DNA of 64,000 bases from Escherichia coli (lineage in GTDB: Bacteria > Pseudomonadota > Gammaproteobacteria > Enterobacterales > Enterobacteriaceae): assembly GCF_024502345.1 (NCBI RefSeq), contig NZ_JALDNN010000003.1. One strand, 5' to 3'. A program made the translations under genes and the position numbers. The notes under the pieces were generated by a model. It saw nothing but the letters and a program-made list of their open reading frames with translations. It searched no databases and was not told the origin of the DNA. This document shows, piece after piece, positions 817 through 21,021 of the stretch (position 1 is its first letter; the number at the start of each line of letters is the position of its first letter).

Positions 817-886
817 TTAACATTACCCATCCGGGGATTACATCCCTGATGGGTGTAATCCCATTTTTTATTTAAGTGAGGATTAC

Positions 887-1822: not shown

Positions 1823-1899
1823 TACTTATTATCAACTTATCTAATCCCTGAGGGAATTCTTCCCTTGGAGAGGATTCCCTCTTAACCGAGGGCTACAAA

Positions 1900-2820
1900 A
1901 TGAAAGCGATTTATAAAATAATTGAAGCGATGCTGGTGAAAATGGGCTTTGAAGGTGCCGTGATCCAAAGTGTCAATCTGGAAACGGGTGTGATTCAGAG
2001 TCTAGTTGTTAAGGCTGATATTCCTGTCCGGACTTTAATGCCGCATTTAAGGCGATATCTGCGCGATTGTGAGCCTTTATGGGGACATGACGTGGATTAC
2101 CACCCTATAGCACAATATTGCTCAGGAGCTGCGTTGTTGAAGGCTGGGCCGGTCACTCTTGAAACCTTTCGGTTTGAGGTTTCAGTGTCAACTGCTCACC
2201 TGCGGCTTGTGGATATTGAGCCGGACTGTCTAAATGAGGGTGTGAACCGTGAAAAACTGGAGTATGTATATTACCGCTCCAGCAATGCAGACAAGGATCT
2301 AATACTTGGTATGGTTGAAAAAGGACATAATTTTATCAATCATCTGCATGAACTTTTACGCTCGCGCTTATCAACGGCTTTGCCGCTGATTTTCGCAGTT
2401 ACAGAAAAGATTGCGGAGAGTTCAGTTCCACAAGTAGTCACCAGCTTTTTCAGTGTTGACCATCAAATCAATGCCCAGATAGTAGTCGAACCTGTACCCG
2501 TTTCAGTCGCAGACCAGATAATTTCTGCTGACTGGAATGTGTGTAGTGTTTCAGGAGCGGATAAGTTCCTGAACCATGTTAATCGTTATCTGTCGGGTAG
2601 GGTGATGAAGCGGCGTATTTACGCTGTTATAGAAGCTTGCGACGGTGGATCTTTATCCCTCAATGCGAACTTAGGTTGCTTTACATCACCTCTTCTCGTA
2701 ACTGAGTATAAAATGGTTCAGTCACACTCTTCATCGCTTTATCGAAAGGCTATAAATAACTCGCTTAAGCAAGTTAATTCGTATGCTCCAGAGCATTCAG
2801 ATGACCTGCTTTCTATGTAA
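1900..2820 (+). CDS. hypothetical protein, array member (306 aa)
   Basis: ATG preceded by SD-like GAGGG and hairpin module; N-terminal similarity to 887..1822. Confidence 0.55.
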   Translation: MKAIYKIIEAMLVKMGFEGAVIQSVNLETGVIQSLVVKADIPVRTLMPHLRRYLRDCEPLWGHDVDYHPIAQYCSGAALLKAGPVTLETFRFEVSVSTAHLRLVDIEPDCLNEGVNREKLEYVYYRSSNADKDLILGMVEKGHNFINHLHELLRSRLSTALPLIFAVTEKIAESSVPQVVTSFFSVDHQINAQIVVEPVPVSVADQIISADWNVCSVSGADKFLNHVNRYLSGRVMKRRIYAVIEACDGGSLSLNANLGCFTSPLLVTEYKMVQSHSSSLYRKAINNSLKQVNSYAPEHSDDLLSM

Positions 2821-2892
2821 TTAATTTTACCCATTGGGGAAGCGTATTCCCCGTGGGGGTTGCTTCCTTTCTTCATTAAAGAGGAAGTGAAT

Positions 2893-3828
2893 ATGTTTAA
2901 TGAAAGTGATGATAAAAACTTTGTTAGTGCAATGCTTAAATGTCAACTTGGCCTGAATATAAGCCAAGAGGATATTACAATATATGACAAAGAAAATCAT
3001 TTTGAACAACTTTCTTTTAAAGCAAATGTGGCGCTTGATGATTTGTTATTTTATCTGGATTTATATATATCAGAATTGATTAAGCATAATGCGCCGTATT
3101 CTGAAACTGAAGTCCTTCGGACTAAAATCAAATACTTTCTTAAAGTATATGAAAAGTCTGGTTTTCAGAACATAAGAATTCGCGGTTATCATAACGCGCA
3201 CAGCACTATAGATATTGTCGATATCGCATCATTAATATTGGCGGGGTCTGTACCGGAGTCTGAACATGATTCAATAGATCCTGTTTTAAGAAAGGAAATC
3301 TATCAAAATCGCATGAGTGTTGAGGGTAAAGTTCTCATTGCCCGTTTTGCACTTAAGCAATTTTTCCATTCTGATTTTGGTGATTTCATCTTAGAGTTCG
3401 AGAAAAGTATCTCCAAGTGTTTGAATACTTCTCTCCAGATAATTAAATCTGTAAAGAACTCATTTAACCGTTTAGGTCAATATCAATATCAGCGTCGTGT
3501 AAAAGATGACCTGACTTTGCATCTTGATTTGAATACAGATGAATACCCGGCCTGTATGCCAGACCTTTACATCGGTTTCAAGGAGTCTGAAGGGACGACG
3601 GGAGTGTATCGCGATGATGAAAAAATCATTCGTCTTTATACTGGCGTTAGTTCCGGAAAGGATGTTCCTGTAATGATGACCGTTCGATTCACTGGCTGTG
3701 ACGGGAGTGTTTTGTCTGAATCATCGCACGGTACTTTCTGTTCCGTGGGACCTACCGGCCGAGTGCAGGTTTGTGACAGAGTTGCGTTGGTCCAAGAAGC
3801 GGTCGAAGAGTTACGGGATGTTGTTTAA
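2893..3828 (+). CDS. hypothetical protein, array member (311 aa)
   Basis: ATG at 2893 preceded by GAGGAAG SD (track ORF starts at upstream TTG 2860); shares blocks with 4005..4961 (KVLIARFALKQFFHSDF vs QVLIARFALEKFWDTHF; YQYQRRVKDDLTLHLDL vs YSYTRRITDELSLHISL). Confidence 0.55.
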   Translation: MFNESDDKNFVSAMLKCQLGLNISQEDITIYDKENHFEQLSFKANVALDDLLFYLDLYISELIKHNAPYSETEVLRTKIKYFLKVYEKSGFQNIRIRGYHNAHSTIDIVDIASLILAGSVPESEHDSIDPVLRKEIYQNRMSVEGKVLIARFALKQFFHSDFGDFILEFEKSISKCLNTSLQIIKSVKNSFNRLGQYQYQRRVKDDLTLHLDLNTDEYPACMPDLYIGFKESEGTTGVYRDDEKIIRLYTGVSSGKDVPVMMTVRFTGCDGSVLSESSHGTFCSVGPTGRVQVCDRVALVQEAVEELRDVV

Positions 3829-4004
3829 CCCTTGTTTTTTACCTCTTCATTCCAAAAAGTAACTTTGTTCTACCAAATGACCGCGCTACCTATTCTGATC
3901 AACTTGCAGGAAAGAATGGCGCAGTAGTACATATTTTTAATCCACCCACTGGGGAAGTCGCTCCCCTGTGGGGCACTTCCTTTAATAATCCTGAGGAAGT
4001 GAAG

Positions 4005-4961
4005 ATGACTAATTCTACTGATAACCAGAACTACGTTCGTGCAGTACTGGCAGGCATTGGTATTGATTTTGATGAAACAGAGATGTTTATCAGTGTCTCT
4101 CATTGCCAGAGCGACGAAGTTTCGTTTACATGCAGTATATCAGCCAGTGAGTTAAGAGAATCTGCGGGGCATTATGTGGATACTCTTAATGATACCCAAC
4201 TGGCTGGCCTGGATGCGGATGCACTCAAGAAGCGACTGGTTTACTTCCTTGAGGTTTTCGACCTGGTTTCCGGTCAATATCTGGATATTTCCGGTAAACA
4301 TTTCGCGACCAGCCGCTTTGAATACGACGATGTCTGTAGTGAGATCCTGAGTAACTCTGCGGACAGCGCCCAGCCAGGTGGCTATGATCGTGAAGAGTAC
4401 AAAAGACTGATGGAAGTTGATGGTCAGGTTTTAATCGCCCGATTTGCACTGGAAAAATTCTGGGATACGCATTTTATTGGGCTTATCAACTATGTATCAG
4501 ATGAAATAACATCCGGGCTTTATGAGGCTTATCGCACGTTCAGTGATATAAACATGGCCGGTTATACATTTAGTGAGTATTCATATACGCGTCGTATTAC
4601 CGACGAACTTAGTTTGCATATTTCACTTAAAGAGGACGATTTCGAAGAGCAATTAACCGATTGTTATATGGATGAAACAACGCTGCCGTCTGGCAAGGTG
4701 GTTTTACGCCGTAATAATGAATCAATTATTGGGATTTATGAAGGATATGCTTCAAAATCTTACTTTCCTATGGTTGCTAATGTTAGAGTCCTTGATACAG
4801 ATGGTGAAGTTGTTACTGAACTTTACCAAGGGGTGAATGTATCAGAATTAGCTGGTGGTCGGATTAAAATCCATGACCGTCAGGAATTAATTTCTGAGGT
4901 GTTCGCTAACTTACGTGAATTCATCCCAGCATCAGAGGATAAAATCTTTGATGCGGCATGA
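4005..4961 (+). CDS. hypothetical protein, array member (318 aa), paralog of 2893..3828
   Basis: ATG at 4005 preceded by GAGGAAG SD and hairpin module (track ORF starts at upstream GTG 3999); clear paralogy to preceding ORF. Confidence 0.55.
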   Translation: MTNSTDNQNYVRAVLAGIGIDFDETEMFISVSHCQSDEVSFTCSISASELRESAGHYVDTLNDTQLAGLDADALKKRLVYFLEVFDLVSGQYLDISGKHFATSRFEYDDVCSEILSNSADSAQPGGYDREEYKRLMEVDGQVLIARFALEKFWDTHFIGLINYVSDEITSGLYEAYRTFSDINMAGYTFSEYSYTRRITDELSLHISLKEDDFEEQLTDCYMDETTLPSGKVVLRRNNESIIGIYEGYASKSYFPMVANVRVLDTDGEVVTELYQGVNVSELAGGRIKIHDRQELISEVFANLREFIPASEDKIFDAA

Positions 4962-5007
4962 GTCCTGAAGGTTGAATTATATATTTTCAGGTTTTTATAC
5001 TTCTAAG

Positions 5008-5037
5008 AAGGCACGGTTATCCGTGCCTTTTTTTTTG
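5008..5037 (+). terminator. putative intrinsic terminator after the ORF array
   Basis: GC stem GGCACGG-TTAT-CCGTGCC followed by a run of 9 T, about 50 bp after the stop at 4961; coordinates approximate. Confidence 0.6.
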
Positions 5038-5697
5038 CTTTCGTCAAAACTTGCATTGATTTCACAATTTTACAACGTTCTTACTGCCCTATATGTTTTA
5101 CGGTACTGTACTCTTGGCACCGTTACATGTAAGCCTTCCATTACCTTCTTCAACCAAACCTAGCCTAATTTACATCCTTCCAGCTGTTTCCTTCTCTGCT
5201 TCTTTTACTCGAATGTTTTGCCCCTTGCTGACGTTTCCGGCAGCACACAGTCCGAATGCTGGAGCCTCCAAATTACTTTTTACTTCTTTTGTTTCGGTTT
5301 CGCGAAAATAGGTCTCTTATCTGAAAAATGGATCGTTAGAGATTTGTATACTGTTTAAAACAAAGGAGTCACTATGCCTGCCACTACAATCCTGAGCAAT
5401 AACCCTGTGAATTCGGTCTTCTCTAATGACAATAGCCATTTCACATACCGGCATATTGATTTCAGTATTGAGCTACTGCTTTCTTCAGGAACTGACTCAC
5501 AACTGGAATATCTGTTTCTCAAACCGGCGGCTGAAGTAAAGATCGATTTACAGCGCCGTTTAGCTAGTGGGGAACGTTACGTTACAACCGAGAGTTGTGA
5601 CAATTTTAGCGAAGTTGATGGCTGCATGGGACACGATTGCTGAGGACTTTATAACGGCAGGCGTCCGATTTAAAACAACACGAGACACTATCACCTA

Positions 5698-7179: not shown

Positions 7180-7635
7180 ATGAAAAAGCGACTTTACCTT
7201 CTTGAATGGAAACTTCGTGAGACAAGAGCCTGGTTAGGATGGATGGTGTTCTGGATTATCATCAGTTTTATGTTTTTATCAGCGATGCTCATGACAGGTC
7301 ATTTGTTAAACAAAGTTGTCCTCCAGCCCGTTTGGCTGTGTATCTGGTCTTTACCCTGGCTGGGCTTCTTGTTGAAGGTACGCGTGACCGAGATGGATAA
7401 AGGGCTCGTGAATACACTTCAGCTCGGAGATCTGCCGGTTTTCCGCTGGAGTCGTTCTGTAGTTCCTGGCACCTGGTCTGTTGACAGAATTAATGGACGC
7501 TACCGGTTGAACCGGATTGGAACGGATGGTTTGACGGTACACTATCCGTGGCGCCTGAACTATCAGCCTTTGTTCCTGACACCGGATAAGCAGATTTCTG
7601 ATATTAACGGACGTGAACATGAACGAAAATTCTGA
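7180..7635 (+). CDS. hypothetical membrane protein (151 aa)
   Basis: ORF track; two hydrophobic segments near the N-terminus (WLGWMVFWIIISFMFLSAMLM, VWLCIWSLPWLGFLL). Confidence 0.4.
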   Translation: MKKRLYLLEWKLRETRAWLGWMVFWIIISFMFLSAMLMTGHLLNKVVLQPVWLCIWSLPWLGFLLKVRVTEMDKGLVNTLQLGDLPVFRWSRSVVPGTWSVDRINGRYRLNRIGTDGLTVHYPWRLNYQPLFLTPDKQISDINGREHERKF

Positions 7636-7846
7636 CGCAGTAGTGAGTGCCGCTACTTCCTGCCTGCTGTATGTGCGTGAAATCGAAAGGTCAGGCCCCG
7701 GTGAAATGCCGGTGTCATATTCAAATGAGCTTATCCAGAGATGGCTTAGTTCGGCTGAACGTCGTAATTTGCATTCCCGCCACAGCTTGCGTTCGATTCG
7801 TACAATTCTGAAGCACGCAAGGAAGAGCCGTCAGCCTGATTTTTAG
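7613..7846 (+). CDS. hypothetical small protein (77 aa)
   Basis: ORF track; start overlaps the 3' end of the preceding ORF. Confidence 0.3.
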   Translation: MNMNENSDAVVSAATSCLLYVREIERSGPGEMPVSYSNELIQRWLSSAERRNLHSRHSLRSIRTILKHARKSRQPDF

Positions 7847-8216
7847 AGCGTGATGCATTTGCTGGTGGAAGGGAAGGGTGTAATCCCGGATGTTTCAGTA
7901 TCGGATTTGGGCAATGTGCAGAACATACGTAATGAACTGATTGGTCTGGATTGGTGGGTGAAGTTTGGTGTAAAGCAGGACTGGCAGCGCATCAATCTGC
8001 AACGCCAGCCGGTCAGTTTTGGCCTTTTGAATGACCCTAATCGTTGTTTTCGGCATGACGGTCAGCAGGTTGAACCTCTGCCACTTTATACAACCGGCAA
8101 TCCCGGGGAATTGCGGAAGGTGCTGTAAAAGTACAACTACCGGCTGCATATCGACTCTTCAGAAGTCGTTGAAGACGTAACGGTGTTGCGCTGCTTTATT
8201 GAAACCGGAGTGATGA

Positions 8217-9176
8217 ATGGCCAGTGAAGATTTACTCTTTTACCGTGACCGGATTCTGGAGCGAATTGAAAAGCTCAGATCCTTTCTGAATGACCATCAG
8301 CCGGTGATGGCCGAGCTGATGACTGTGGGGACCGTCACACGACACGAAGAGCGGTTGAAAGAGGTGAACCCCATCGAGGTGAGTACTATTTCAGATGCCT
8401 CCGTGGATGAAATTATCCGTGTTATTCAGGATTTCTGTATCGATGACATTGATGTACTCAGCAGGAATTCGACGAAAGTGACAACCAAATACCCGGGGTT
8501 GATTATTGTTCCTGAGGGTGCCGAACAGCTGAGCGGAATTATTTGCGATATAAATGATGCCAAAAGTGACTTTGCCTCTGCAATGAAAAGGGTGAATTCG
8601 GAGAAACACATCCGGTTTAAGGAAGTTCACCGTAAGCTTCCCGGTCTGGTGACTGCGCATTCCACTCGCAAAATTCTGTTTGTGGAAGAACAGCTCAAAA
8701 AAGTTACTTTTGCCTGGCGGCTAAACCGAAACCAGGTAAAAACAAACGCAAGTGATCTCATCGCGATGCTGGATAAGCGTCGTTTAGTAGCGGTCAAATC
8801 GCCCGTGACAACTGACCTGACAGTGGTGGCGAACATCGATAGAGCGAAGGCATTACTGGAAAGAAAAGTACTGAGAGACGGCGAAGGGTATCGCCTTTGT
8901 CGAACCAATACCTTCCCGGTTCCGATAGCGCATTTGTTCACATACCGGCCTGAAGGCAAGGAGCGTGGAAGTAGCAAATATGCCGAGACTGATTACAAGG
9001 TGGTGAAAGCCTCATTACCCATTTTTGGCGTCGGACAAAAGCCAACAATTAAAAGACTTCAGGACTGGGTGCCAGCGCAGGATGAAGCACTGTCCAATGG
9101 TCGAAGGAGCAACCATAGCTACACGGAACTTGTACCCGGTGCAGATCTTGGCATTTTCATTATGAGAAAGGTCTGA
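8217..9176 (+). CDS. Tus-like (replication terminus site-binding protein family) homologue, divergent
   Basis: ATG with GGAG 7 nt upstream; 319 aa; blocks recalled from E. coli Tus: [23 protein letters not shown] vs [32 protein letters not shown] vs [18 protein letters not shown] vs VRLPGVLCY; comparison is from memory. Confidence 0.5.
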   Translation: [319 protein letters not shown]

Positions 9177-9186: not shown

Positions 9187-10095
9187 ATGCAATGGATTTC
9201 CACGACCAGCCAGAAACTTGATGAGAGACTTTATCGTGTCTGTGTCTGGGTGAAAAAATACCATGAGGATGCCATCAACCGTGTTGTGTTGACGGTTGAT
9301 CTCAGTAAGGCCCGCCATGACCCGATAGAGGACCAGGTACGGGCCGAGTTACTGTGTGGGCATTATTTTCTGATGCGGAAAGAGAACAACGCAAAATCGG
9401 CGCCAGCGGATCAGAACTTTGAATTTTTGCCTGACGGCCGCAACCTGAGCTGGCAGACGTCGACACCGGGGCTTCAGCACCTTCTCCTGAACAGCAATGT
9501 ACCTGAGTCCCTTAGGCCCCTGGCTGATTACATTCAGATGCGTCTGGCCAAGCTGACCATGGTCCCGATGTCGGGAACCATCATGAAAGCCGCACTGGAA
9601 GACAGCATCAGCTGGGTAAAAGTGGATCTGCGATACTACTGGCAGTATGAACTGGTTAATTCCCATCTGGGGCCTGTTCAGGTAACTCATAAGGCGCTTG
9701 TGCGATTCGGGAGGCTGGCAAAACACGATGAAAACGCTAGTGCAATTCGAATGCTTCGCCAGCGGTTGTCATCACCGTTTATTCAGGAATTTGAGATGCC
9801 TGGGGAGGAGCTGAAGCGCAAGCAGAAGATCATGAATACCGTTGATGTGAAAATGCTTTTCCACACACATTATCCGGGCCAGAAATTACTGCTGGCCCGA
9901 TATGCTAATGGTTGGGTGCTGGTGGATTGTTTCCTGTTCCACCATATCAAACCCAAAAAGAAGGCGAAAAACAAAACCAAAGCGGGTAAATCAGAAACTC
10001 AAAATATCAAATCGACGGGGAGTGAGGATCATGGAACTGGGCATTATGGTGTGCATCGTGTTGTTACTCTCACTGGCAGCGGTGTGGATCAGTAA
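9187..10095 (+). CDS. hypothetical protein (302 aa) with lysine-rich C-terminal tail
   Basis: ORF track; begins 11 bp after the Tus-like stop; no recognised domain. Confidence 0.4.
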   Translation: MQWISTTSQKLDERLYRVCVWVKKYHEDAINRVVLTVDLSKARHDPIEDQVRAELLCGHYFLMRKENNAKSAPADQNFEFLPDGRNLSWQTSTPGLQHLLLNSNVPESLRPLADYIQMRLAKLTMVPMSGTIMKAALEDSISWVKVDLRYYWQYELVNSHLGPVQVTHKALVRFGRLAKHDENASAIRMLRQRLSSPFIQEFEMPGEELKRKQKIMNTVDVKMLFHTHYPGQKLLLARYANGWVLVDCFLFHHIKPKKKAKNKTKAGKSETQNIKSTGSEDHGTGHYGVHRVVTLTGSGVDQ

Positions 10096-10375
10096 CAAGA
10101 CGGTCGGATTGCTGGAAATCCATTACTTTAAGCGGCCGCTGAGCATGGAGTATGCAGCCTGGCTGCGTGTGATGTGTGCCGGTTTGCTATTTATTTTTAT
10201 TCAGATGGTCCCGGCATTCACGTTTCTGTATACCCTGAAGCTGGTGGCACTGTTAAATCTGGGCGTGCAGACGATGAAGCTAAACGGGGTTTATAAATTT
10301 AAACGCACCGGGATGATGCCGCCGAAAGACGCCCCTCATGATCTTGGCCGCTTTAATCCATTTCGAAAGAAGTAA
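10031..10375 (+). CDS. hypothetical small membrane protein (114 aa)
   Basis: ATG at 10031 preceded by GAGGA; two hydrophobic helices; overlaps the 3' end of 9187..10095 in another frame, so one of the two may be mis-called. Confidence 0.3.
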   Translation: MELGIMVCIVLLLSLAAVWISNKTVGLLEIHYFKRPLSMEYAAWLRVMCAGLLFIFIQMVPAFTFLYTLKLVALLNLGVQTMKLNGVYKFKRTGMMPPKDAPHDLGRFNPFRKK

Positions 10376-10521
10376 TCCTCATTAGCGCCCCGAAGGAGTA
10401 TATAGTAAAAACAGTGTCTATTCGCGTGTGAGTGAGTGACAGGGCTTTACATATAACGTCAGCGGCTTTCATTTCAAACGTACATACTGTGTATAATGGT
10501 ATGTACGTTTTTTATTTGCGC

Positions 10522-10739
10522 CGAGTCCTTCGGCGGTACCCGCCCGTGAACTCTGCCGCAAGCATGCCATTTCCGATGCCACGTTTTACACCTGGCGTAA
10601 GAAGTATGGCGGTATGGAGGTGCCTGAAGTTAAGCGCCTGAAGTCGCTTGAGGAAGAGAACGCCAGACTCAAGAAGCTGCTTGCCGAAGCCATGCTGGAT
10701 AAAGAGGCGCTTCAGGTGGCTCTTGGGCGAAAGTACTGA
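10522..10739 (+). pseudogene. IS3-family orfA remnant (5'-truncated, no start codon)
   Basis: In-frame translation matches the IS3-family OrfA C-terminus (FYTWRKKYGGM motif, leucine-zipper-like region); an upstream stop lies immediately before the first in-frame codon. Confidence 0.5.
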
Positions 10740-10762
10740 CGACAGACCAGAAGCGGGAAGCC

Positions 10763-11596
10763 GTGATGTTGATGTGTGATGCGACCGGTCTGTCGCAACG
10801 TCGTGCCTGCAGGCTTACAGGTTTATCCCTGTCGACCTGCCGCTATGAGGCTCACCGTCCGGCTGCTGATGCGCATTTATCAGGGCGCATCACTGAGCTG
10901 GCACTGGAGCGCAGGCGTTTTGGCTACCGTCGTATTTGGCAGTTGCTGCGCCGTGAAGGGCTTCATGTTAATCATAAGCGCGTGTACCGGCTTTATCACC
11001 TCAGTGGCCTGAGCGTAAAACGCAGAAGACGTCGTAAAGGGCTGGCAACAGAACGTCTGCCGCTGCTCCGTCCGGCGGCGCCCAATCTGACCTGGTCGAT
11101 GGATTTCGTCATGGACGCACTTTCCACCGGTCGCAGGATCAAGTGTCTTACCTGCGTCGATGATTTCACAAAGGAATGCCTGACGGTCACTGTTGCCTTT
11201 GGGATTTCAGGCGTTCAGGTCACGCGTATTCTGGACAGCATTGCACTGTTTCGAGGCTATCCGGCGACGATAAGAACTGACCAGGGGCCGGAGTTCACTT
11301 GCCGTGCACTGGATCAATGGGCCTTTGAGCATGGTGTTGAGTTGCGCTTAATCCAGCCGGGCAAGCCAACGCAGAACGGATTTATTGAGAGCTTTAACGG
11401 ACGATTTCGCGATGAATGTTTGAATGAGCACTGGTTCAGCGATATCGTTCATGCCAGGAAAATTATTAATGACTGGCGGCAGGATTATAACGAATGCCGC
11501 CCGCACTCCACGCTGAATTATCAGACACCGTCTGAATTTGCAGCGGGCTGGAGAAAGGGTCATTCTGAGAATGAAGATTCCGACGTTACTAACTGA
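10763..11596 (+). CDS. IS3-family transposase OrfB (DDE integrase-like catalytic domain)
   Basis: 277-aa ORF with motifs TDQGPEFT and [16 protein letters not shown] typical of IS3-family OrfB; frame is -1 relative to the orfA remnant. Confidence 0.7.
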
Positions 11597-11786
11597 GTGT
11601 TGTATCTAATCGTGGGGGCAGGTCACTTGGTCGGTGCCATGACGCGACTATTTTCAGGTGATTGCTGATACAACTCACAACAGGCTTGAGCAATGTCGCT
11701 CTTTGCCGTTTCGTGGAAGTGAATAGCCCCCGTACTTAGTTTTTCAGGCACGATACCTTGATTAATGAGCTTGGAGTATTCAGGAA

Positions 11787-12606
11787 GGCACTGTTGCAAA
11801 GTTAGCGATGAGGCAGCCTTTTGTCTTATTCAAAGGCCTTACATTTCAAAAACTCTGCTTACCAGGCGCATTTCGCCCAGGGGATCACCATAATAAAATG
11901 CTGAGGCCTGGCCTTTGCGTAGTGCACGCATCACCTCAATACCTTTGATGGTGGCGTAAGCCGTCTTCATGGATTTAAATCCCAGCGTGGCGTCGATTAT
12001 CCGTTTCAGTTTGCCATGATCGCATTCAATCACGTTGTTCCGGTACTTAATCTGTCGGTGTTCAACGTCAGACGGGCACCGGCCTTCGCGTTTGAGCAGA
12101 ACAAGCGCGCGACCATAGGCGGGCGCTTTATCCGTGTTGATGAATCGCGGGATCTGCCACTTCTTCACGTTGTTGAGGATTTTACCCAGAAACCGGTATG
12201 CAGCTTTGCTGTTACGACGGGAGGAGAGATAAAAATCGACAGTGCGGCCCCGGCTGTCGACGGCCCGGTACAGATACGCCCAGCGGCCATTGACCTTCAC
12301 GTAGGTTTCATCCATGTGCCACGGGCAAAGATCGGAAGGGTTACGCCAGTACCAGCGCAGCCGTTTTTCCATTTCAGGCGCATAACGCTGAACCCAGCGG
12401 TAAATCGTGGAGTGATCGACATTCACTCCGCGTTCAGCCTGCATCTCCTGCAGCTCACGGTAACTGATGCCGTATTTGCAGTACCAGCGTACGGCCCACA
12501 GAATGATGTCACGCTGAAAATGCCGGCCTTTGAATGGGTTCATGTGCAGCTCCATCAGCAAAAGGGGATGATAAGTTTATCACCACCGACTATTTGCAAC
12601 AGTGCC
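11787..12606 (-). mobile_element. IS26-family insertion sequence, variant allele, inverted relative to the other two copies
   Basis: 820 bp bounded by 14-bp inverted repeats GGCACTGTTGCAAA / TTTGCAACAGTGCC; Tnp differs from the other two copies at three residues (EMQAERG vs EMLAERG; ALVLLK vs ALALLK; IIDATLG vs IIGATLG). Confidence 0.95.
11839..12543 (-). CDS. tnpA: IS26-family transposase Tnp26 (234 aa)
   Basis: MNPFKGRHFQRDIILWAVRWYCKYGISYRELQEM... matches the IS26/IS6-family transposase recalled from memory; start taken at the MNPFKG methionine. Confidence 0.95.
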   Translation of the reverse strand: MNPFKGRHFQRDIILWAVRWYCKYGISYRELQEMQAERGVNVDHSTIYRWVQRYAPEMEKRLRWYWRNPSDLCPWHMDETYVKVNGRWAYLYRAVDSRGRTVDFYLSSRRNSKAAYRFLGKILNNVKKWQIPRFINTDKAPAYGRALVLLKREGRCPSDVEHRQIKYRNNVIECDHGKLKRIIDATLGFKSMKTAYATIKGIEVMRALRKGQASAFYYGDPLGEMRLVSRVFEM

Positions 12607-12807
12607 GTTAATTCTGCTGGCGGTAGTCGTTTGGTTTACCCTGCCAGAGAGGAAAATACGGCAATTGGGCAAACAGCGTGCCACACCTCACTGATTAGGG
12701 TGTGGTTAACACTTCATTAATTAAACAGTCATTACTCTTACTTAACTGTGTGATATACCTATTTAGGGTTTGAAACATTAGAGTTTGAAATAGGTAAGGT
12801 CTGAGCA

Positions 12808-13953
12808 ATGACTGAGCAAACGTCCCCCGCACAACTTGATCTCGATAGCGCGGCTCAGCCCCCCAGAGTTTATATCCGGGGGGACTGGGTGTTGGCGCAT
12901 TACTGCGTTTTGGAGCCGCGCGTTGCGCAATTGCGCGCTAATATGCCCAGTGGGGGGGTATTTGATCTCAACCAACTGGGGGCGTTAGATACCGCCGGTG
13001 CAACGTTGTTAGCTCTGCTTCTGGGTGAGGACCGTGTAGCAAATTTACGCGAACTTGCGCCTAAATTGCCAGAAGAGCGGAGGATATTACTTGAAACGGT
13101 AAGCCATGTATTGCCTGACTTAACCCCTGAGTTGTCTGAAAAACCCACACGGTTTTGGCTTGAGATGCTGGCTAATACCGGCCGTTCGGTAGATAACTTA
13201 TGGCAAGATATTAAGTCACTATTGGGCTTTATTGGTCTGGCGCTGGAAACCTTGCTGGGAACACTTTTTCGCCCCTCCCGCTGGCGCATTACCTCATTAA
13301 TTGCCAATATTCAACAGATTGGCCTCAATGCTGTGCCGATCATTATGTTGCTCACCTTTTTGGTGGGGGCAGTTATCGCCTTTCTCGGTGCAACCGTACT
13401 CACTACTTTCGGCGCGGGCATTTTTACCGTCGATTTGGTGGTATTTTCTTTTCTACGTGAATTTGCGGTACTGCTTACCGCGATCCTGATGGCAGGGCGA
13501 ACAGCCAGTGCTTTTACCGCTGAAATTGGCTTGATGAAAGCCAATGAAGAGATTGATGCTATCCAAACACTGGGCTTGAATCCGGTCGAACTGTTGGTGC
13601 TACCGCGCGTCTTGGCACTATTGATCTCTCTGCCGATGCTAACCTTTATTGGCATGGTTTGCGGTATTTTCGGTGGCATGGTGGTGTGTGCCTTAACACT
13701 GGATATCTCTCCCACTATGTTTTTGTCGATTATGCAAAACAGTAATGGGTTGCAGCATTTTCTGGTGGGAATAAGTAAAGCCCCTATTTTTGCTTTCCTG
13801 ATTGCTATTATTGGCTGTCTGGAGGGGTTCAAAGTAACCGGTAGTGCTGAATCAGTCGGGGTTCATACCACCACCAGTGTGGTGCATTCGATCTTTGTGG
13901 TGATTTTGCTTGATGCCGTGGCAGCGCTATTTTTCATGGAAATGGGGTGGTGA
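12808..13953 (+). CDS. ABC transporter permease, MlaE family, with N-terminal STAS-like domain
   Basis: 381 aa; soluble N-terminal ~110 aa followed by multi-helix permease region (AVPIIMLLTFLVGAVIAFLGATVLTTFGAG...) typical of MlaE/YrbE permeases. Confidence 0.8.
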   Translation: MTEQTSPAQLDLDSAAQPPRVYIRGDWVLAHYCVLEPRVAQLRANMPSGGVFDLNQLGALDTAGATLLALLLGEDRVANLRELAPKLPEERRILLETVSHVLPDLTPELSEKPTRFWLEMLANTGRSVDNLWQDIKSLLGFIGLALETLLGTLFRPSRWRITSLIANIQQIGLNAVPIIMLLTFLVGAVIAFLGATVLTTFGAGIFTVDLVVFSFLREFAVLLTAILMAGRTASAFTAEIGLMKANEEIDAIQTLGLNPVELLVLPRVLALLISLPMLTFIGMVCGIFGGMVVCALTLDISPTMFLSIMQNSNGLQHFLVGISKAPIFAFLIAIIGCLEGFKVTGSAESVGVHTTTSVVHSIFVVILLDAVAALFFMEMGW

Positions 13954-13958
13954 GCCAA

Positions 13959-14750
13959 ATGACGCAAGATGCAATCATTCAAATTCGCGATCTGGTTAAC
14001 TGCTTTGGCGTACAGTGCGTGCATCAAGGGTTGAATCTTGATGTTAAGCGCGGCGAAGTTCTTGGCGTGGTTGGTGGCTCGGGTACCGGTAAATCTGTTC
14101 TGTTACGCAGTATTGTTGGGTTACGTCGTCCGACTGACGGGAAAATTCATGTTTTTGGCAAGGATTTAATGGCACTGTCAGGTCAATCCCGCGCCATGGT
14201 CGAGCGCCGATTCGGCGTATTATTTCAACGAGGCGCACTGTTCAGTTCTCTAACCGTGACCGAGAACGTGGCATTACCATTAATAGAAAACGCCGGATTA
14301 CCCCGGTCTGAGGCTGAGCGATTGGCTCAGGTTAAACTGGCACTGGCTGGGCTACCGCCGGGCACTGGCAGTAAGTATCCAGCATCTCTGTCGGGTGGTA
14401 TGGTCAAGCGTGTTGCGCTAGCCCGTGCCTTAGCACTGGACCCGGATATTCTGTTTCTTGATGAACCGACTGCGGGTCTTGATCCCATTGGTGCGGCGGC
14501 GTTTGACAGTTTGATCCGCACCCTGCGGGATGCCCTCAATCTAACGGTATTCTTGGTGACCCACGATCTGGATACGCTGTATACACTGTGTGATCGTGTG
14601 GCGGTGCTTTCGCAGAAAAAAGTGCTGGTGGTTGATACTCTGGATAAAGTTGCAGCGACTGATGATGGCTGGATTCAGGCGTATTTTCATGGCCCACGTG
14701 GCCGGGCTGCTTATCAGGCAGCGGCAATTAACAGTGGAGAGAGGTTGTAA
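13959..14750 (+). CDS. ABC transporter ATP-binding protein (MlaF-like)
   Basis: Walker A GGSGTGKS, ABC signature LSGGMVKRVALARAL, Walker B ILFLDEPTAGLD; ATG at 13959 follows the permease stop. Confidence 0.85.
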   Translation: MTQDAIIQIRDLVNCFGVQCVHQGLNLDVKRGEVLGVVGGSGTGKSVLLRSIVGLRRPTDGKIHVFGKDLMALSGQSRAMVERRFGVLFQRGALFSSLTVTENVALPLIENAGLPRSEAERLAQVKLALAGLPPGTGSKYPASLSGGMVKRVALARALALDPDILFLDEPTAGLDPIGAAAFDSLIRTLRDALNLTVFLVTHDLDTLYTLCDRVAVLSQKKVLVVDTLDKVAATDDGWIQAYFHGPRGRAAYQAAAINSGERL

Positions 14751-14751
14751 T

Positions 14752-15690
14752 ATGGAAACCCGTGCTCATCATGTCGTTATTGGTTTGTTCACTCTTATTG
14801 TGGTGAGTGCCGCGCTGCTGTTTTGCCTATGGCTGACAAATTCCGGTTCTGATCGCCAGTTCAGATTGTACGATATCGTTTTCAATGAGCCTGTGAGTGG
14901 CCTGTCACAGGGTAGCACCGTTCAGTACAGCGGGATTCGAGTCGGTGAGGTGACGCAATTACGCCTGGACCGAGACAATCCGAATAAGGTTTGGGCACGT
15001 ATTCGCGTTTCTGCATCTACTCCGATACGCGAAGATACCCAAGCTCGTCTCACCGTCGCGGGTATTACCGGCACCTCAAATATTCAATTCAGCAGTGGCA
15101 GCCAGACCAGCCCGTTGCTGGAGGGCAAAGATGACGAGGTTCCTATCATTATTGCTACCCCTTCGCCGATGAGCCAGTTACTGGCTAACGGTGAGAATTT
15201 CATGACCAATGCGAATGAAGTGTTGGTGCGTTTGAACCAGTTGCTGGCACCGGATAACCAGCAGCGCCTAGTAACGACACTGGATAATCTCGCGCTGGTC
15301 ACCCAAACTGTGGCTGATCAACGTGGTGATCTCCGTACCCTGTTGCAGCAGTTGGCGCAGGCCAGTAAACAGGCTAATGAGACACTGACTCAAACCAATC
15401 GCCTGCTGCGTAATGCTAACGGCTTAATGGATGGGCAGGGGAAACAACTGGTCAGTGATGCCGCCAAAACCATGGCATCGTTGCAAAATACCAGTACCAT
15501 CCTCAATAAATTGGTGAGTGAAAATAAAACCTCACTCAATAACGGGATGCAAGGGATGAATGAGCTGGGGCCGGCAGTAGATGAGCTGCGCAGAACATTA
15601 GCGACATTACGTGCCGCCGTTTCTCGTTTGGAAGAAAACCCAGCGGCCTTGTTGCGCGGCCGTGAAAGAACACAGGAGTTTACGCCTTAA
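14752..15690 (+). CDS. MCE-domain (MlaD/PqiB-like) periplasmic substrate-binding protein
   Basis: ATG at 14752 with GGAGAGAGG upstream; N-terminal single TM helix (HHVVIGLFTLIVVSAALLFCLWL) followed by an MCE-like domain and a Q/L-rich coiled-coil tail. Confidence 0.75.
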   Translation: METRAHHVVIGLFTLIVVSAALLFCLWLTNSGSDRQFRLYDIVFNEPVSGLSQGSTVQYSGIRVGEVTQLRLDRDNPNKVWARIRVSASTPIREDTQARLTVAGITGTSNIQFSSGSQTSPLLEGKDDEVPIIIATPSPMSQLLANGENFMTNANEVLVRLNQLLAPDNQQRLVTTLDNLALVTQTVADQRGDLRTLLQQLAQASKQANETLTQTNRLLRNANGLMDGQGKQLVSDAAKTMASLQNTSTILNKLVSENKTSLNNGMQGMNELGPAVDELRRTLATLRAAVSRLEENPAALLRGRERTQEFTP

Positions 15691-16331
15691 TGCTCTCTTT
15701 TAATGTGATGCGCTATGCAGGCCGCCGCGTGTGGCTATTGATGATATCCGGGGGGGCGATACTGCTCTCTGCCTGCACCATTTTACCTTCGGCCCCTGTA
15801 TCACAAGTTTATCTTCTGCCGGTGCCACCTGCAGTCAGTGTGCCACACGCGCAGACAGTAAACTGGTCATTACGGGTTTCACAACCGGCGACGAACCAGT
15901 TTCTTAATAGCTCACGCATAGCGGTGCAGCCTCAGGGCCAGGAGATTGCGGTTTATAAAAACTCCCGTTGGAGTGATTCGGCGCCGATTTTGGTGCGCAA
16001 TCGTCTTATTCAGGCGTTCCGTAGCGATGGGCGAATCCGTGCAGTCAGTAGCGACGATGATAGCTTGCAGGCTGATGTGGAGTTGAGTGGTGATCTGTCC
16101 GCGTTCCAAGGGGTATACCATGTTGGTAGCAGCGAAGTGCTGATCCGTTTTGATGCTCGGCTGGTAAGAATTTCAGATCGTAGGATTATTGCGACTCGCC
16201 AGTTTGACATTCGCCAACCGATAAAAGGTAACGAGATGAACGAGGTGGTTCAGGCCTTTGGCCTGGCCAGTGACCAGTTAGCCACTCAAGTGCTCAACTG
16301 GACGATGCAGCAATCCCCTGCGCAGGGTTGA
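15690..16331 (+). CDS. ABC-transport auxiliary lipoprotein (lipobox LLSAC)
   Basis: Start overlaps the preceding stop (TAATG coupling); signal peptide with lipobox LLSAC; position and size fit the lipoprotein partner of MCE systems. Confidence 0.6.
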   Translation: MLSFNVMRYAGRRVWLLMISGGAILLSACTILPSAPVSQVYLLPVPPAVSVPHAQTVNWSLRVSQPATNQFLNSSRIAVQPQGQEIAVYKNSRWSDSAPILVRNRLIQAFRSDGRIRAVSSDDDSLQADVELSGDLSAFQGVYHVGSSEVLIRFDARLVRISDRRIIATRQFDIRQPIKGNEMNEVVQAFGLASDQLATQVLNWTMQQSPAQG

Positions 16332-16349
16332 TATCTAAACCAGCACCGG

Positions 16350-16395
16350 TTGGTTTTATCTGAGGCGAGTTGGCAGTAGCTAACTCGCCTTTTTT
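16350..16395 (+). terminator. putative intrinsic terminator of the Mla/MCE-like operon
   Basis: Hairpin GGCGAGTT...AACTCGCC followed by TTTTTT shortly after the stop at 16331; coordinates approximate. Confidence 0.5.
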
Positions 16396-16678
16396 ATCGT
16401 CTAGTTTAATGATTCAAGGCGAATAATTGCGTCTAAGGGGAAAATATTCTCTTTATTGTTTTGTGATTAGTATCTCATTGAGTAAGGGATTAATGGTGTT
16501 TGAGTTATCTATTTCATTGTTTTTAATATGTTTTTATTTAAATTGTTCTGTGGTTATCTTTTTTGTTAAAGAGAACAATATTCTCCAAGCATTAAAAACA
16601 ACAAGAAAATAGGAAAAGTATTTCTCCCCGTAAAACCCTAAGATAAAAATAATCCAAATCACTGATTAATTACTTCAA

Positions 16679-17956
16679 ATGCAAAAAATAACACATCAAC
16701 AATTACTCGATTGGTTGAAAAAGGAAGTGAAACTTTCATTAGGTTGTACTGAGCCTATTGCTATTGCGTATGCTGCCGCAGTGGCTGCTAAATATCTCAA
16801 CGCACCGATATTAAAAATAACGGGGAATATATCGGAGAATCTGTATAAAAATGCGATGGGAGTCACTATTCCGGGAACAAGCTATTGCGGAGTCACTCTT
16901 GCGGCGGCAATAGGGGCTATTGGTGGTAACGCGGATGCCGATTTAGAAGTATTAAAAGATATTACTGCGACACAAATTACCGAAGCCTATATATTTAATG
17001 AATCAGGTAACGTGTGTCTAAACGCAGTAGATGCTACGGATTTTATTTTTATCGATATTACGCTATATAGTCTTAGTGATCAGTGCCGGGTAGTGATTCA
17101 AGGTAGCCATACTAATGTCACTGAAGTTTATATTAATAATATAAAGCAAATATTAGTCCGAGACCTAATTGCCGCCAATGATAGTGGGGTACTACCCGAA
17201 TTTTCCCTTAACGACGCATTTAAATTTGTAACCGATGTCGCCGCTAAAGACATCATGTTTATGCTGAAAAGTGCTGAGATTAATACCGCGCTTTCTGACG
17301 AGGGGCAAAGGAAGAACTATGGTTTGAACGTGAGTGGCGCGTTGTCGCAAGCCAGAAAAAATGGCTTTATCAGCACTGACTTACTGAGTCAAATGTTGAT
17401 CAACACCACTGCGGCATCAGATGCCCGTATGGGCGGCGCACCCTTACCCGCGATGTCAAATTATGGCTCTGGTAATCAGGGGATTACCGTGACAATGCCG
17501 GTAGTGACACTTGCCCGACATCTTAATACAGATGATGAAACACTGGCCCGGGCATTAGCGTTGGCCCATCTAGCCGCAATCTCAATTCATATGCGTTATA
17601 CCCGATTGTCTGCATTGTGTGCGGCGTCAACGGCAGCAATGGGGGCGGCGGCAGGTATGAGTTGGTTATTGACCCAAGATTTTCAAACTATCTCCTACGC
17701 GGTCAGTAATATGATCAGTGATATTAGTGGCATTATTTGCGATGGTGCATCAAATAGTTGTGCCATGAAAGTGTCTACCGCTACCGCCTGTGCATTTAAG
17801 TCGGTGTTGATGGCGCAACAAAATAGTGTTGCAGGGGAGCGTGATGGCATTGTTTCCTGCGATGTTGAAGGTTCTATCAATAATTTATGTAAATTAGTGT
17901 TATCGCCAATGAGGCAAACAGATAAAGAAATTATCAGTATAATGACACGTAAATAA
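16679..17956 (+). CDS. L-cysteine desulfidase CyuA/YhaM-family (serine dehydratase-like) protein
   Basis: 425 aa; N-terminal blocks LSLGCTEPIAIAYAAAVAA and GVTIPGTSYCG match the YhaM/CyuA family recalled from memory; AT-rich gene after a long AT-rich leader. Confidence 0.7.
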   Translation: MQKITHQQLLDWLKKEVKLSLGCTEPIAIAYAAAVAAKYLNAPILKITGNISENLYKNAMGVTIPGTSYCGVTLAAAIGAIGGNADADLEVLKDITATQITEAYIFNESGNVCLNAVDATDFIFIDITLYSLSDQCRVVIQGSHTNVTEVYINNIKQILVRDLIAANDSGVLPEFSLNDAFKFVTDVAAKDIMFMLKSAEINTALSDEGQRKNYGLNVSGALSQARKNGFISTDLLSQMLINTTAASDARMGGAPLPAMSNYGSGNQGITVTMPVVTLARHLNTDDETLARALALAHLAAISIHMRYTRLSALCAASTAAMGAAAGMSWLLTQDFQTISYAVSNMISDISGIICDGASNSCAMKVSTATACAFKSVLMAQQNSVAGERDGIVSCDVEGSINNLCKLVLSPMRQTDKEIISIMTRK

Positions 17957-18037
17957 ATATTACGGTTTAACCGCGTGGCCTAACGTCATTATTAATAATG
18001 ATCGGCGGGCTATCGTTAAAATTTAAAGGGACAAATA

Positions 18038-18557
18038 ATGAGCAAATCAAAATCGATCGCGACTCTGGTTATCCATGCCGGAGATCAAGTTGACCGGGGC
18101 AATAATGCTATTTTTCCACCGATTACTACCGCCAGTTCCTTCATTCAGCCAAATTTAGGCGAAGAAGGGGAGTTTTGTTATTCCCGTTGCAGTAACCCGA
18201 CAAGATATGCATATGAAACCGCCTTGGCTGAGTTGGAAGGAGGTATCTATGCTACGGCAACCGCTTCCGGTATGGCAGCAACTGCACTTATATTGGAATT
18301 GCTACCTAAGGATTCCCATGTATTAGTAATGAAAGGGGTCTATGGCGGTACTTATCGGTTGTTTGAACGTCTGCGTAAACAAACTTCAGGTACGACATTC
18401 AGTTATGTCGATCTTAATGATCTGGCGTCAGTAGAGCGCCATATTCAAGAGAATACAGGTCTAATCTGGATCGAAACGCCCACTAACCCACTGTTGGAAT
18501 TAGTTGATATTGAAGCAGTATGCCAGGTTGCCAAAAGCAGGGGCATAATGAGCTGCG
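18038..18557 (+). pseudogene. PLP-dependent cystathionine beta-lyase/gamma-synthase family gene, 3'-truncated by IS1
   Basis: N-terminal ~173 aa of a MetB/MetC-family enzyme (LVIHAGDQ..., SRCSNPTRYAYETALAELEGG, GLIWIETPTNPLL); the reading frame runs directly into the IS1 left end. Confidence 0.7.
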
Positions 18558-18612
18558 GGTGATGCTGCCAACTTACTGATTTAGTGTATGATGGTGTTTT
18601 TGAGGTGCTCCA

Positions 18613-18888
18613 GTGGCTTCTGTTTCTATCAGCTGTCCCTCCTGTTCAGCTACTGACGGGGTGGTGCGTAACGGCAAAAGCACCGCCGGACATCAGCGCT
18701 ATCTCTGCTCTCACTGCCGTAAAACATGGCAACTGCAGTTCACTTACACCGCTTCTCAACCCGGTACGCACCAGAAAATCATTGATATGGCCATGAATGG
18801 CGTTGGATGCCGGGCAACCGCCCGCATTATGGGCGTTGGCCTCAACACGATTTTCCGCCATTTAAAAAACTCAGGCCGCAGTCGGTAA
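18613..18888 (+). CDS. insA: IS1 InsA
   Basis: [43 protein letters not shown]... matches IS1 InsA. Confidence 0.9.
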
Positions 18889-19310
18889 CCTCGCGCATAC
18901 AGCCGGGCAGTGACGTCATCGTCTGCGCGGAAATGGACGAACAGTGGGGATACGTCGGGGCTAAATCGCGCCAGCGCTGGCTGTTTTACGCGTATGACAG
19001 GCTCCGGAAGACGGTTGTGGCGCACGTATTCGGTGAACGCACTCTGGCCACACTGGAGCGTCTTCTGAGCCTGCTGTCGGCCTTTGAGGTCGTGGTATGG
19101 ATGACGGATGGCTGGCCGCTGTATGAATCCCGCCTGAAGGGAAAGCTGCACGTTATCAGCAAGCGTTACACTCAGCGCATTGAGCGACATAACCTGAATC
19201 TGAGACAACATCTGGCAAGGCTGGGACGGAAGTCACTGTCGTTCTCAAAATCGGTGGAGCTGCATGACAAGGTCATCGGGCATTATCTGAACATAAAACA
19301 CTATCATTAA
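18807..19310 (+). CDS. insB: IS1 InsB reading frame (expressed as InsAB' by -1 frameshift)
   Basis: Frame encodes ...[28 protein letters not shown]... characteristic of IS1 InsB. Confidence 0.85.
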
Positions 19311-19412
19311 GTTGGAGTCATTACCAGAGTTTATTGTCAAATAAAAAGGCAGATTTCTCTGCCTTAATACACAATATACATAGTTCAAGGTACTATATAT
19401 AACGCAGGGGCG

Positions 19413-20603
19413 CTACTCATCCAGCGCCTCACGCATGAACTTCGTCATCGCTTTCTTACCTGCGTCAATGTTACGGATATAGCGGGAAACCATTTCTGCA
19501 TTGCTCCAGTTACCCATCTCCATGATCTGCAAGTGCGTGTACCCGGCATCAGCAAGTTCGATGGCGCCGCCAACCCTAACGCTGTGACCAGTCCAGCATC
19601 GGGTGCCCGCTTCCTGCGGATGAAGTTCATCCCAAAACGCTTCAAAGGCCCGGAGCAATGTGTTTTTACTGAGCATACCCTCATCATCGACAATAATGGG
19701 CTTTCCATTTTTCCCGATCGGGGGGCGGGTAGGTCGGTAAGGCATATTATGATTTTTCAGCAGCGTATTGATCTCATTCCCTTTGCTCCGGAGACCCCAT
19801 CCAGGGGGCATATATCCGCTGTCCTGAAAGTTAACTGCCTGGAAGAGATAATCCTTCGGATGGCTTTGCTGGTCCCTTTTGACCATACCCATCAGCCTGA
19901 TTAGGGTGGCAGTGAGATGAGGGGTCAGATGATAGGTAAGCAGGGTACTGACAGTGGATTTTGTCCGGTACACCGTCAGGGTAAAACTGCCTGTCTGTTC
20001 ATTCAGCACAAGGTCCTGCATCCGAATGCGCCGAAGTTCTGCTGAGCGCAACAGTGTTTCAAAACCTGTCCAGATAATGCAAAGGTCTCGGAGTTTGCGC
20101 ACCGACTGTGTCGTACCGTGGGCTTTAATCAAAGCTTTCAGGTCGGAGACTAGGAATGGCGTTGCCTGACGAGTCACTTTTTGCTCTCGGGCTTCAGCTT
20201 GTTCGAGGCTTGCAAGAATACTCTTGACCTTGGATGTGATGATCCCAGGGCGATCGAGTGCTTTCCTATGGATACTGTTCAGCGCGTGCAGACAACCTTT
20301 AATGCTGCTGTGTGACAGCGAGCCCTGAAGATAGTCCAGATAGGACAACAACGGGGGTTGAGTCACCGGGAGAGAACTGGCAGGCCAGGCTTCGTTTCCC
20401 TCCTTTCCTGCATTAGCTTGGTACCACTCGTTCCAGGAACGCAGCCATTGAAGGTAAGTTTTAGCCGTGTGGTATTTCATATGAGAAAAGTAAAAAATGA
20501 GCTCCTTAAGGTCATTATTGGGCACCTCAAACGTGACCAGTTCCTGATGGAGGTCTGAGTCTTCAAACTGTCTGGTTACTGGCTTGCTGTTCATGGTGGT
20601 CAC
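19413..20603 (-). CDS. tyrosine site-specific recombinase (phage-type integrase)
   Basis: 396 aa; C-terminal catalytic region HSVRVGGAIELADAGYTHLQIMEMGNWSNAEMVSRYIRN fits the R..HxxR..Y tyrosine-recombinase pattern. Confidence 0.85.
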   Translation of the reverse strand: MTTMNSKPVTRQFEDSDLHQELVTFEVPNNDLKELIFYFSHMKYHTAKTYLQWLRSWNEWYQANAGKEGNEAWPASSLPVTQPPLLSYLDYLQGSLSHSSIKGCLHALNSIHRKALDRPGIITSKVKSILASLEQAEAREQKVTRQATPFLVSDLKALIKAHGTTQSVRKLRDLCIIWTGFETLLRSAELRRIRMQDLVLNEQTGSFTLTVYRTKSTVSTLLTYHLTPHLTATLIRLMGMVKRDQQSHPKDYLFQAVNFQDSGYMPPGWGLRSKGNEINTLLKNHNMPYRPTRPPIGKNGKPIIVDDEGMLSKNTLLRAFEAFWDELHPQEAGTRCWTGHSVRVGGAIELADAGYTHLQIMEMGNWSNAEMVSRYIRNIDAGKKAMTKFMREALDE

Positions 20604-20808
20604 CTGAATACACTGTTTTTATTTACAGCTATTTTAGCACTGAGGTATCCACTTATGAACAGGTTCATAGCAACTAAAAAAGAGAGAGCGAGTACAACAA
20701 CGATCCGGAGATAAACATCAAATATTTGTGAAAAAAATTAGATTCTAGGGACAAAACGACATAAGATTGGGAAACCGTACTTTCGCGGGAAATAAATTAA
20801 GGTTGACC

Positions 20809-21021
20809 ATGTCCGAAACTAAGCAGGCGTATTTAATGAAATTTCGTAAGTGCTCTTCTTTCGACACACTGGAAAAAGTATTCGAACGACTCTGTGAAAA
20901 AAATGCAGGTATAGCATCACTGGAAATTTCCGGGGCATATGACCATCGAAAAGCTGAACTGACAATGAAGAAACTCTACGATAAAGTACCCGCAAGCGTA
21001 TGGACACTGGTCCGTCAGTAA
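20809..21021 (+). CDS. hypothetical small protein (70 aa)
   Basis: ATG at 20809 preceded by AAGG; sits in the integrase-adjacent accessory cluster. Confidence 0.3.
   Translation: MSETKQAYLMKFRKCSSFDTLEKVFERLCEKNAGIASLEISGAYDHRKAELTMKKLYDKVPASVWTLVRQ

Follow-up and report, generated by a model that had tools for sequence, protein, structure and literature searches.

A highly diverged tus gene in the backbone of IncHI1 resistance megaplasmids retains the C6 lock pocket of Escherichia coli Tus

A tus gene on an IncHI1 plasmid

We analysed a 64,000-nucleotide stretch of Escherichia coli DNA (contig NZ_JALDNN010000003.1; hereafter the window), centring on a gene that an earlier examination of the letters alone (the sequence-only reading) had described as a Tus-like gene of 319 codons. 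The open reading frame (ORF) list of the window contains this gene with an ATG start and a product of 319 amino acids (aa), and its RefSeq product name is "DNA replication terminus site-binding protein". It belongs to the backbone of the IncHI1 (R27-type) resistance megaplasmids, where it was already known and annotated.

8217..9176, plus strand: tus, ATG-start ORF; Pfam PF05472; product identical to R27 WP_000135563.1

About 290 conjugative plasmids (180-450 kb; types IncHI, MOBH and MPF_F) contained the region from 5.6 to 10.45 kb of the window at 100% identity. The remaining window was contiguous with the same plasmids, and the whole window is IncHI1 plasmid. The window Tus was 100% identical to Tus of the IncHI1 reference plasmid R27 (NC_002305.1), and identical proteins were found in at least 218 plasmid records. 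Orthologues were encoded by IncHI2 plasmids (about 60% identity) and by a Citrobacter IncHI1B-type plasmid (86%), while a relative at about 23% identity was present in more than 2,400 plasmids, mostly from Klebsiella. About 2,750 of the 72,556 PLSDB plasmids encoded a Tus relative.

These results bear on several statements of the sequence-only reading. It had placed the gene outside a chromosomal terminus context, which is correct, since tus lies on a plasmid. It had also placed it in an AT-rich accessory segment, and had suggested either that this segment derives from a plasmid or other replicon with a Ter/Tus-type fork trap of its own or that the gene was co-opted for another role in DNA binding. 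The segment is AT-rich (GC content 0.39-0.49 at 1-10 kb vs. 0.55-0.68 at 27-44 kb of the window), but the AT-rich part is the conserved IncHI1 backbone, syntenic across six lineages, and it is the GC-rich part that is accessory. Similarly, the plasmid origin stands, while derivation from another replicon does not, because the region is core backbone of the window's own plasmid. The description of the neighbours as hypothetical membrane proteins was roughly right, as they matched no Pfam or NCBIfam family.

Family, fold and conservation of the protein

The PF05472 (Ter) profile matched the window Tus at 71.8 bits (E=6.7e-20; gathering cutoff 22), and a phmmer search matched the E. coli Tus structures of the Protein Data Bank (PDB) at E=6e-5. 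The outcome that the sequence-only reading had named as refuting it, a profile search without a significant Tus-family match, thus did not occur. The two Tus-like blocks picked out by the sequence-only reading were both present and aligned with E. coli Tus (phmmer against PDB 1ecr): VHRKLPGLV (aa 137-145) with VHRHLPGLI, and TFAWRLN (aa 164-170) with RFGWANK. Its description of the protein as highly diverged was equally accurate. Identity to E. coli Tus was 17% over 293 aligned columns (15-16% by structural alignment), and the NCBIfam equivalog cutoffs for chromosomal Tus (TIGR02648 and NF002810) were missed (52 vs. 323 bits and 27 vs. 178.3 bits).

As the Pfam match covered only the N-terminal 60% of the profile (aa 15-196, profile positions 11-193 of 296) and the equivalog scores were far under their cutoffs, the completeness of the protein was tested. 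Thirteen clade members with 35-100% identity were alignable over their full length and shared C-terminal motifs outside the Pfam match. The clade has 55 invariant columns, at identities from 100% down to 34%, which implies purifying selection. An AlphaFold2 model built on the clade alignment (predicted local distance difference test score, pLDDT, 81.3; predicted template modelling score, pTM, 0.73) matched PDB entries 1ecr, 4xr0, 4xr1 and 4xr2 in Foldseek (E about 6e-17 to 1e-15, template modelling score 0.65-0.70, 333-336 columns). No PDB chain other than Tus was significant in this search (best non-Tus E=0.3). As modelled, the window protein is a full-length, highly diverged two-domain Tus with interdomain β-strands.

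Mechanistic residues

Six residues of the interdomain strands of E. coli Tus (A173, K175, V234, K235, Q237 and R241) read Ter bases. In the window Tus all six positions were replaced, and the replacements were mostly invariant in the clade (A173 by R168, K175 by N170, V234 by N231, K235 by T232, Q237 by V235 and R241 by H239). This comparison was made on an alignment of 50 Tus superfamily members, including nine IncHI-clade sequences; the six residues listed as important for fork arrest were taken from Table 1 of PMC10331603, and the E. coli Tus reference sequence was 100% identical to chain A of 1ecr.

By contrast with the base-reading positions, the pocket of the C6 lock ("mousetrap"), which in E. 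coli Tus holds the flipped C6 base, was intact. F140, H144 and G149 of E. coli Tus correspond to F134, H138 and G143, invariant in all nine IncHI-clade sequences, and E49 corresponds to E45, kept in eight of the nine. The scaffold residues K89, R232, W172, P238 and P258 of E. coli Tus were also retained in the window Tus. Since R198 and the base-reading strand residues are replaced, a different DNA specificity is expected, and such an altered specificity fits the absence of E. coli-type Ter sites described below. Taken together, the residue pattern is as would be expected if the locking mechanism were kept and a different DNA sequence recognised.

Gene module around tus

The gene order around tus was kept in six lineages, namely IncHI1, IncHI2, the IncHI1B type and three more distant ones, down to 34% Tus identity. 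It opens with a toprim gene, followed by several ORFs that are paralogues of about 300 aa each and by small ORFs; then come tus, ORF-X and ORF-Y, and lastly a tyrosine recombinase gene of convergent orientation and hha. The features of the window neighbouring tus are:

7619..8224, plus strand: DUF2913-family pseudogene, directly 5' of tus and overlapping its start; in-frame stops at 7844-7846 and 8126-8128
9187..10095, plus strand: ORF-X, 302-aa orphan, always about 10 bp after tus; RNase H-like fold and disordered lysine-rich tail
10058..10375, plus strand: ORF-Y, small conserved ORF (about 105-114 aa), last of the co-directional run; annotated in RefSeq and present in all lineages
10376..19412, no strand: accessory insert of about 9 kb flanked by insertion sequences (IS); IS3-family fragment, IS26, mla-like ABC transporter operon, serine ammonia-lyase gene, IS1
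19413..20603, minus strand: tyrosine recombinase gene (PF00589, 43.8 bits), convergent with the tus operon; position kept in six lineages
20611..20628, plus strand: LexA-box-like element CACTGTTTTTATTTACAG (CTG-N10-CAG), beside the start of the recombinase gene (20603); only one exact match in the window
20809..21021, plus strand: hha (Hha/YmoA family; PF05321, 69.9 bits), divergent from the recombinase gene; last conserved member of the module

The DUF2913-family pseudogene appears as separate ORFs of 77 and 92 aa, of which RefSeq annotates the 92-aa fragment only. Its intact 202-aa orthologue in lineage L018 aligned in one frame at 71% over 202 aa (tblastn). The intact gene overlaps the tus start in lineages L015, L017 and L018 (the L015 copy matched PF11140 at 30.1 bits) and is absent from IncHI2. 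ORF-Y matched no family in the profile search.

In the window the module is split by the accessory insert, which sits between ORF-Y and the recombinase gene. In R27, IncHI2 and L018 this gap measures 22-31 bp (24 bp in R27) and contains a conserved GC terminator hairpin; the hairpin is gone from the window, removed by the insertion of about 9 kb. An IncHI2 plasmid carries IS1-mcr-1-pap2 between ORF-X and ORF-Y. The ORF-Y/recombinase junction, terminus-proximal as judged by GC skew, looks like an insertion hot spot.

The tyrosine recombinase is a candidate multimer resolvase. The block holding CACTGTTTTTATTTACAG was conserved in IncHI1, the IncHI1B type, IncHI2 and L018 (a Photorhabdus lineage). 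Because CACTGTTTTTATTTACAG fits the spacing of a LexA SOS box and is conserved, the recombinase may be SOS-regulated.

Position on the replicon

In R27 the cumulative GC skew was lowest across the rep genes (40-56 kb) and peaked at about 150 kb; tus lies at 162 kb. From the rep genes as far as ORF-Y, genes over about 60 kb share one orientation, which flips at the recombinase gene. The long co-directional run that contains tus follows the Tra2 transfer genes. The GC skew would thus place tus in the terminus-proximal part of R27.

In two lineages a gene for a Rep3-family initiator was found close to hha (within 1-2 kb) and about 3.6-4.4 kb from tus (RepFIA repE at 156848-157603 of R27, and a Rep3_N gene at 14645-15727 of L015). 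The other IncHI plasmids lack it. It may have been inserted there by coincidence, or it may be left over from an arrangement in which tus adjoined an origin.

Search for a cognate Ter site

A scoring matrix was made from ten E. coli Ter sequences, with self-scores of 21.8-30.1 bits. The best matches were 13.7 bits on the 230-kb IncHI1 plasmid and 17.3 bits on R27, compared to shuffle maxima of 19.2-19.4 bits. The sequence-only reading had proposed a search for Ter sites with a GTTGTAAC core, and this gave a negative answer. The core occurred three times in the window (1.2 expected), with a single copy in the backbone, and in the matrix scan no site on the 230-kb plasmid scored like a Ter. The backbone copy (5581-5588, minus strand) was rejected as an unconserved chance match, lying inside an 89-aa ORF with flanks that are not Ter-like. 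Its orthologues read GTGACAAC, GTTACAGC, ATAACAAC and ACGACTAA; as these cores vary at the DNA level, only the encoded V/I-T-T tripeptide is constrained. A partial match spotted by eye, AGTTGTAC (8130-8141, minus strand), was also discarded, being altered in the IncHI1B type and absent from IncHI2.

Among the IncHI plasmids examined, the sole E. coli-like Ter-like sequence was AATATTTAAGTTGTAACTAATAT on an IncHI2 plasmid (NZ_LC511657.1, 160813-160835, plus strand). Its score was borderline (19.3 bits vs. a shuffle maximum of 18.8). Its 13-bp core is identical to the TerI/J type, and T replaces G at position 6. It lies in an intergenic gap of Tra1, about 2 kb from the repeats of the origin of transfer (oriT). 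Read as a Ter, it would block forks after they had crossed the tus side. This site was rejected, because the orthologous position in IncHI1/R27 is degenerate, with TTTGTAGTTAA in place of the core.

Three unbiased searches were also made. The non-coding 14-mers conserved over the six lineages were only a palindrome (see below), a terminator, promoter-like blocks and the LexA-like box. The non-coding 13-mers present in multiple copies in IncHI1 as well as in IncHI2 comprised iterons, repeats of the centromere and of oriT, IS ends, the palindrome and CTGGCTAATAACC. The last of these was rejected as a candidate, its orientation tracking the local genes. Inverted asymmetric pairs flanking the interval from tus to hha numbered 84, compared to 86 in the null.

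A plasmid-wide palindrome

The palindrome recovered in these searches, AAAAGTWACTTTT, is a perfect 13-bp palindrome (AAAAGT-W-ACTTTT). Its 9-bp core, AAGTNACTT, was present in 50 copies on the 230-kb IncHI1 plasmid, 52 on a 232-kb IncHI2 plasmid and 50 on R27, while Markov shuffles gave about four copies (maximum 8). In the window the 11-bp form AAAGTNACTTT starts at 266, 3856, 8563, 8700 and 21968, and all five copies fall in the backbone and none in accessory DNA. Two of them are inside tus:

8563..8573: second palindrome copy inside tus
8700..8710, no strand: palindrome copy AAAGTTACTTT inside tus, codons K-V-T-F; kept in six of six lineages

The palindrome carries no information beyond 13 bp and no polarity. 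Roughly 40% of the copies lie in the non-coding 17% of the plasmid, including positions beside rep genes, oriT and tra operon boundaries. It is similar to the operator sites of KorB/ParB-type global regulators. The motif had no relevant match in the searchable literature. Its symmetry, its lack of polarity and its copy number of about 50 led to its rejection as a Tus site.

Discussion

We favour, with a probability of roughly 0.55, the reading that the product of IncHI1 tus is a putative polar fork barrier specific to the plasmid, whose conserved C6 lock would act on a Ter that is not of the E. coli type and which would belong to a terminus-proximal module. IncHI1 Tus would act as a monomeric, sequence-specific, polar replication-fork barrier on its own plasmid. 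Strand separation would trigger the mousetrap lock, as in E. coli Tus, on a plasmid-specific Ter unlike the E. coli consensus. Together, tus, the RNase H-like ORF-X and the convergent tyrosine recombinase gene would form a terminus-proximal module, which would confine the meeting of forks and permit dimers to be resolved on a plasmid that is large, low in copy number and equipped with more than one replicon. This reading is put first because of the Tus family and fold, the kept lock residues, the gene neighbourhood common to six lineages, the terminus-proximal position suggested by GC skew and the precedent of plasmid-borne tus genes. The fuller proposal, that the divergent Tus with its C6 lock, a novel Ter specificity unrelated to GTTGTAAC, ORF-X and the recombinase make up a self-contained IncHI terminus module, is tentative, and we would put it at less than even odds.

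Several results weigh against the fork barrier. The matrix scan found no E. coli-like Ter on the window, the 230-kb IncHI1 plasmid or R27, and the three unbiased searches yielded no asymmetric Ter candidate, although a divergent Ter could escape these search methods. No conserved element or autoregulatory TerB-like operator was found 5' of tus, where the sequence is not conserved between IncHI1 and IncHI2; the apparent intergenic gap there is the 3' end of the DUF2913-family pseudogene. Of the residues implicated in slowing or stopping the helicase (E47, E49 and R198), E49 is conserved, but in the 50-member alignment E47 corresponds to H43 at a variable position and R198 to V193, with R present in only 6 of the 50 superfamily sequences. 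E47 and R198 are two of the six listed fork-arrest residues, and neither is conserved. On R27, tus is 12 kb from the skew maximum and not at the switch, and the skew itself is confounded with gene orientation. Finally, experimental work on any IncHI Tus was not found in the searchable literature.

Some of these results would also fit if the Tus fold and DNA binding had been kept but co-opted, either as a transcriptional roadblock or regulator or as a factor of plasmid maintenance or conjugation. We consider such a co-option rather unlikely, and it is the alternative that survives best. It would account for the failure of every search to return Ter-like polar sites, for the lack of conservation of R198 and E47 and for the location of tus within a long co-directional run after the Tra2 transfer genes. 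The abundant backbone palindrome, which has the GTAACT of the Ter core in it and is conserved in one copy within tus, also counts in favour of this reading. However, the palindrome is symmetric, lacks polarity and occurs in about 50 copies, which makes it ill-suited to a monomeric asymmetric binder, and about 50 barriers would block plasmid replication. Moreover, the C6 pocket (F, H, G) and E49 show little or no variation in the clade, which is hard to explain unless locking that depends on strand separation matters.

It is improbable that the plasmid Tus acts on the Ter sites of the host chromosome, or on a plasmid-borne Ter of the E. coli type, supplementing or competing with host Tus. A "potential ter site" has been mentioned for an IncHI2 plasmid (PMC5923156), there is a precedent in R1 and R6K for the use of host-type Ter by plasmids (PMC10331603), and AATATTTAAGTTGTAACTAATAT scores slightly above the shuffle maximum (19.3 vs. 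18.8 bits). Yet AATATTTAAGTTGTAACTAATAT has T for G at position 6 and its IncHI1/R27 counterpart reads TTTGTAGTTAA at the core, no IncHI1 or R27 site scores above the shuffle range, and other residues stand at the positions that correspond to the base-reading strands of E. coli Tus. That tus is a decaying relic with no current function is hardly credible: the adjacent DUF2913-family gene is pseudogenised in IncHI1 and deleted in IncHI2, and the region is an insertion hot spot, but tus is present as an intact, full-length gene in every lineage (34-100% identity, 55 invariant columns that include functional residues), is 100% identical over at least 218 plasmid records and gives a confident structure model.

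The polar fork barrier that we favour has several points of comparison among known systems. IncHI1 Tus shares with E. coli Tus (PDB 1ECR and 2I06) the PF05472 family, the two-domain fold and the residues F140, H144, G149, E49, K89, R232 and W172, and both genes lie in the terminus-proximal part of their replicon (for IncHI1 as indicated by GC skew). It differs in being only 15-17% identical, in scoring under the NCBIfam equivalog cutoffs, and at R198, E47 and the β-strand base-reading positions. The IncHI1 replicon lacks E. coli-type Ter sites by the matrix scan, and the upstream comparison gave no Ter-like operator 5' of tus; unlike the E. coli gene, IncHI1 tus is plasmid-borne and part of an operon-like run. 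The IncHI2 gene (R478 / pSTM6-275; WP_012006603.1) is an orthologue of about 60% identity at the same syntenic position. IncHI2 differs in lacking the upstream DUF2913-family gene and in having the one borderline Ter-like site near oriT.

The plasmids R1/R100 and R6K rely on host Tus. They carry E. coli-type Ter sites with no tus described, while the IncHI plasmids show the reverse, a tus of their own and no host-type Ter. In R1/R100 and R6K, plasmid replication is under the control of a Tus-Ter barrier (PMC10331603). The IncHI2 plasmid gene has been called tus in PMC5923156. Plasmid-borne "mobile" tus genes were described by Galli et al. 2019, who proposed that the chromosomal gene arose by domestication of a plasmid tus (PMC6549158), and a 2023 review restates this plasmid-to-chromosome domestication (PMC10331603). 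Like IncHI1, the "mobile" tus genes and the tus of the Pseudoalteromonas chromid represent Tus homologues on plasmid-type replicons. For the Pseudoalteromonas chromid, the cognate Ter was likewise not found using the E. coli consensus (Xie et al. 2021, PMC7858055). The Pseudoalteromonas tus adjoins the origin and is linked with unidirectional replication (PMC6549158, PMC7858055), whereas about 60 kb separate IncHI1 tus from the rep genes, and it lies close to the terminus suggested by the skew.

In Salmonella, E. coli and Enterobacter, the megaplasmids of the IncHI1 and IncHI2 groups are major vehicles of resistance to multiple drugs, colistin (mcr-1) and carbapenems. The present finding re-identifies a gene that was already annotated and mentioned in the literature. 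The searchable literature contained no plasmid-encoded Tus with a defined Ter site or a demonstrated function, and IncHI1 tus is a convenient test case, combining a confident model, an intact lock pocket and differing DNA-reading residues. If IncHI1 Tus does have a Ter of its own, the discovery of that Ter would allow a direct test of the hypothesis of tus domestication from plasmids and would reveal how the specificity of Tus evolves.

Other features of the window

In every lineage a toprim/DUF7146 gene is followed by a run of four or five paralogous ORFs (about 300-320 aa; e.g. 3999-4961) that belong to no known family. The run is located at about 1-5000 of the window and in the upstream regions of L015, L017 and L018. 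A conserved rho-independent terminator lies at 5005-5032 of the window, and conserved promoter-like blocks at about 5341 and 6583. A GC-rich Tn7-like element (26000-48400) with tnsD, tnsE and a Mu-type transposase gene carries a clpK/ftsH heat-resistance island, and is 100% identical to segments of IncHI1-type plasmids (e.g. NZ_LR890350.1).
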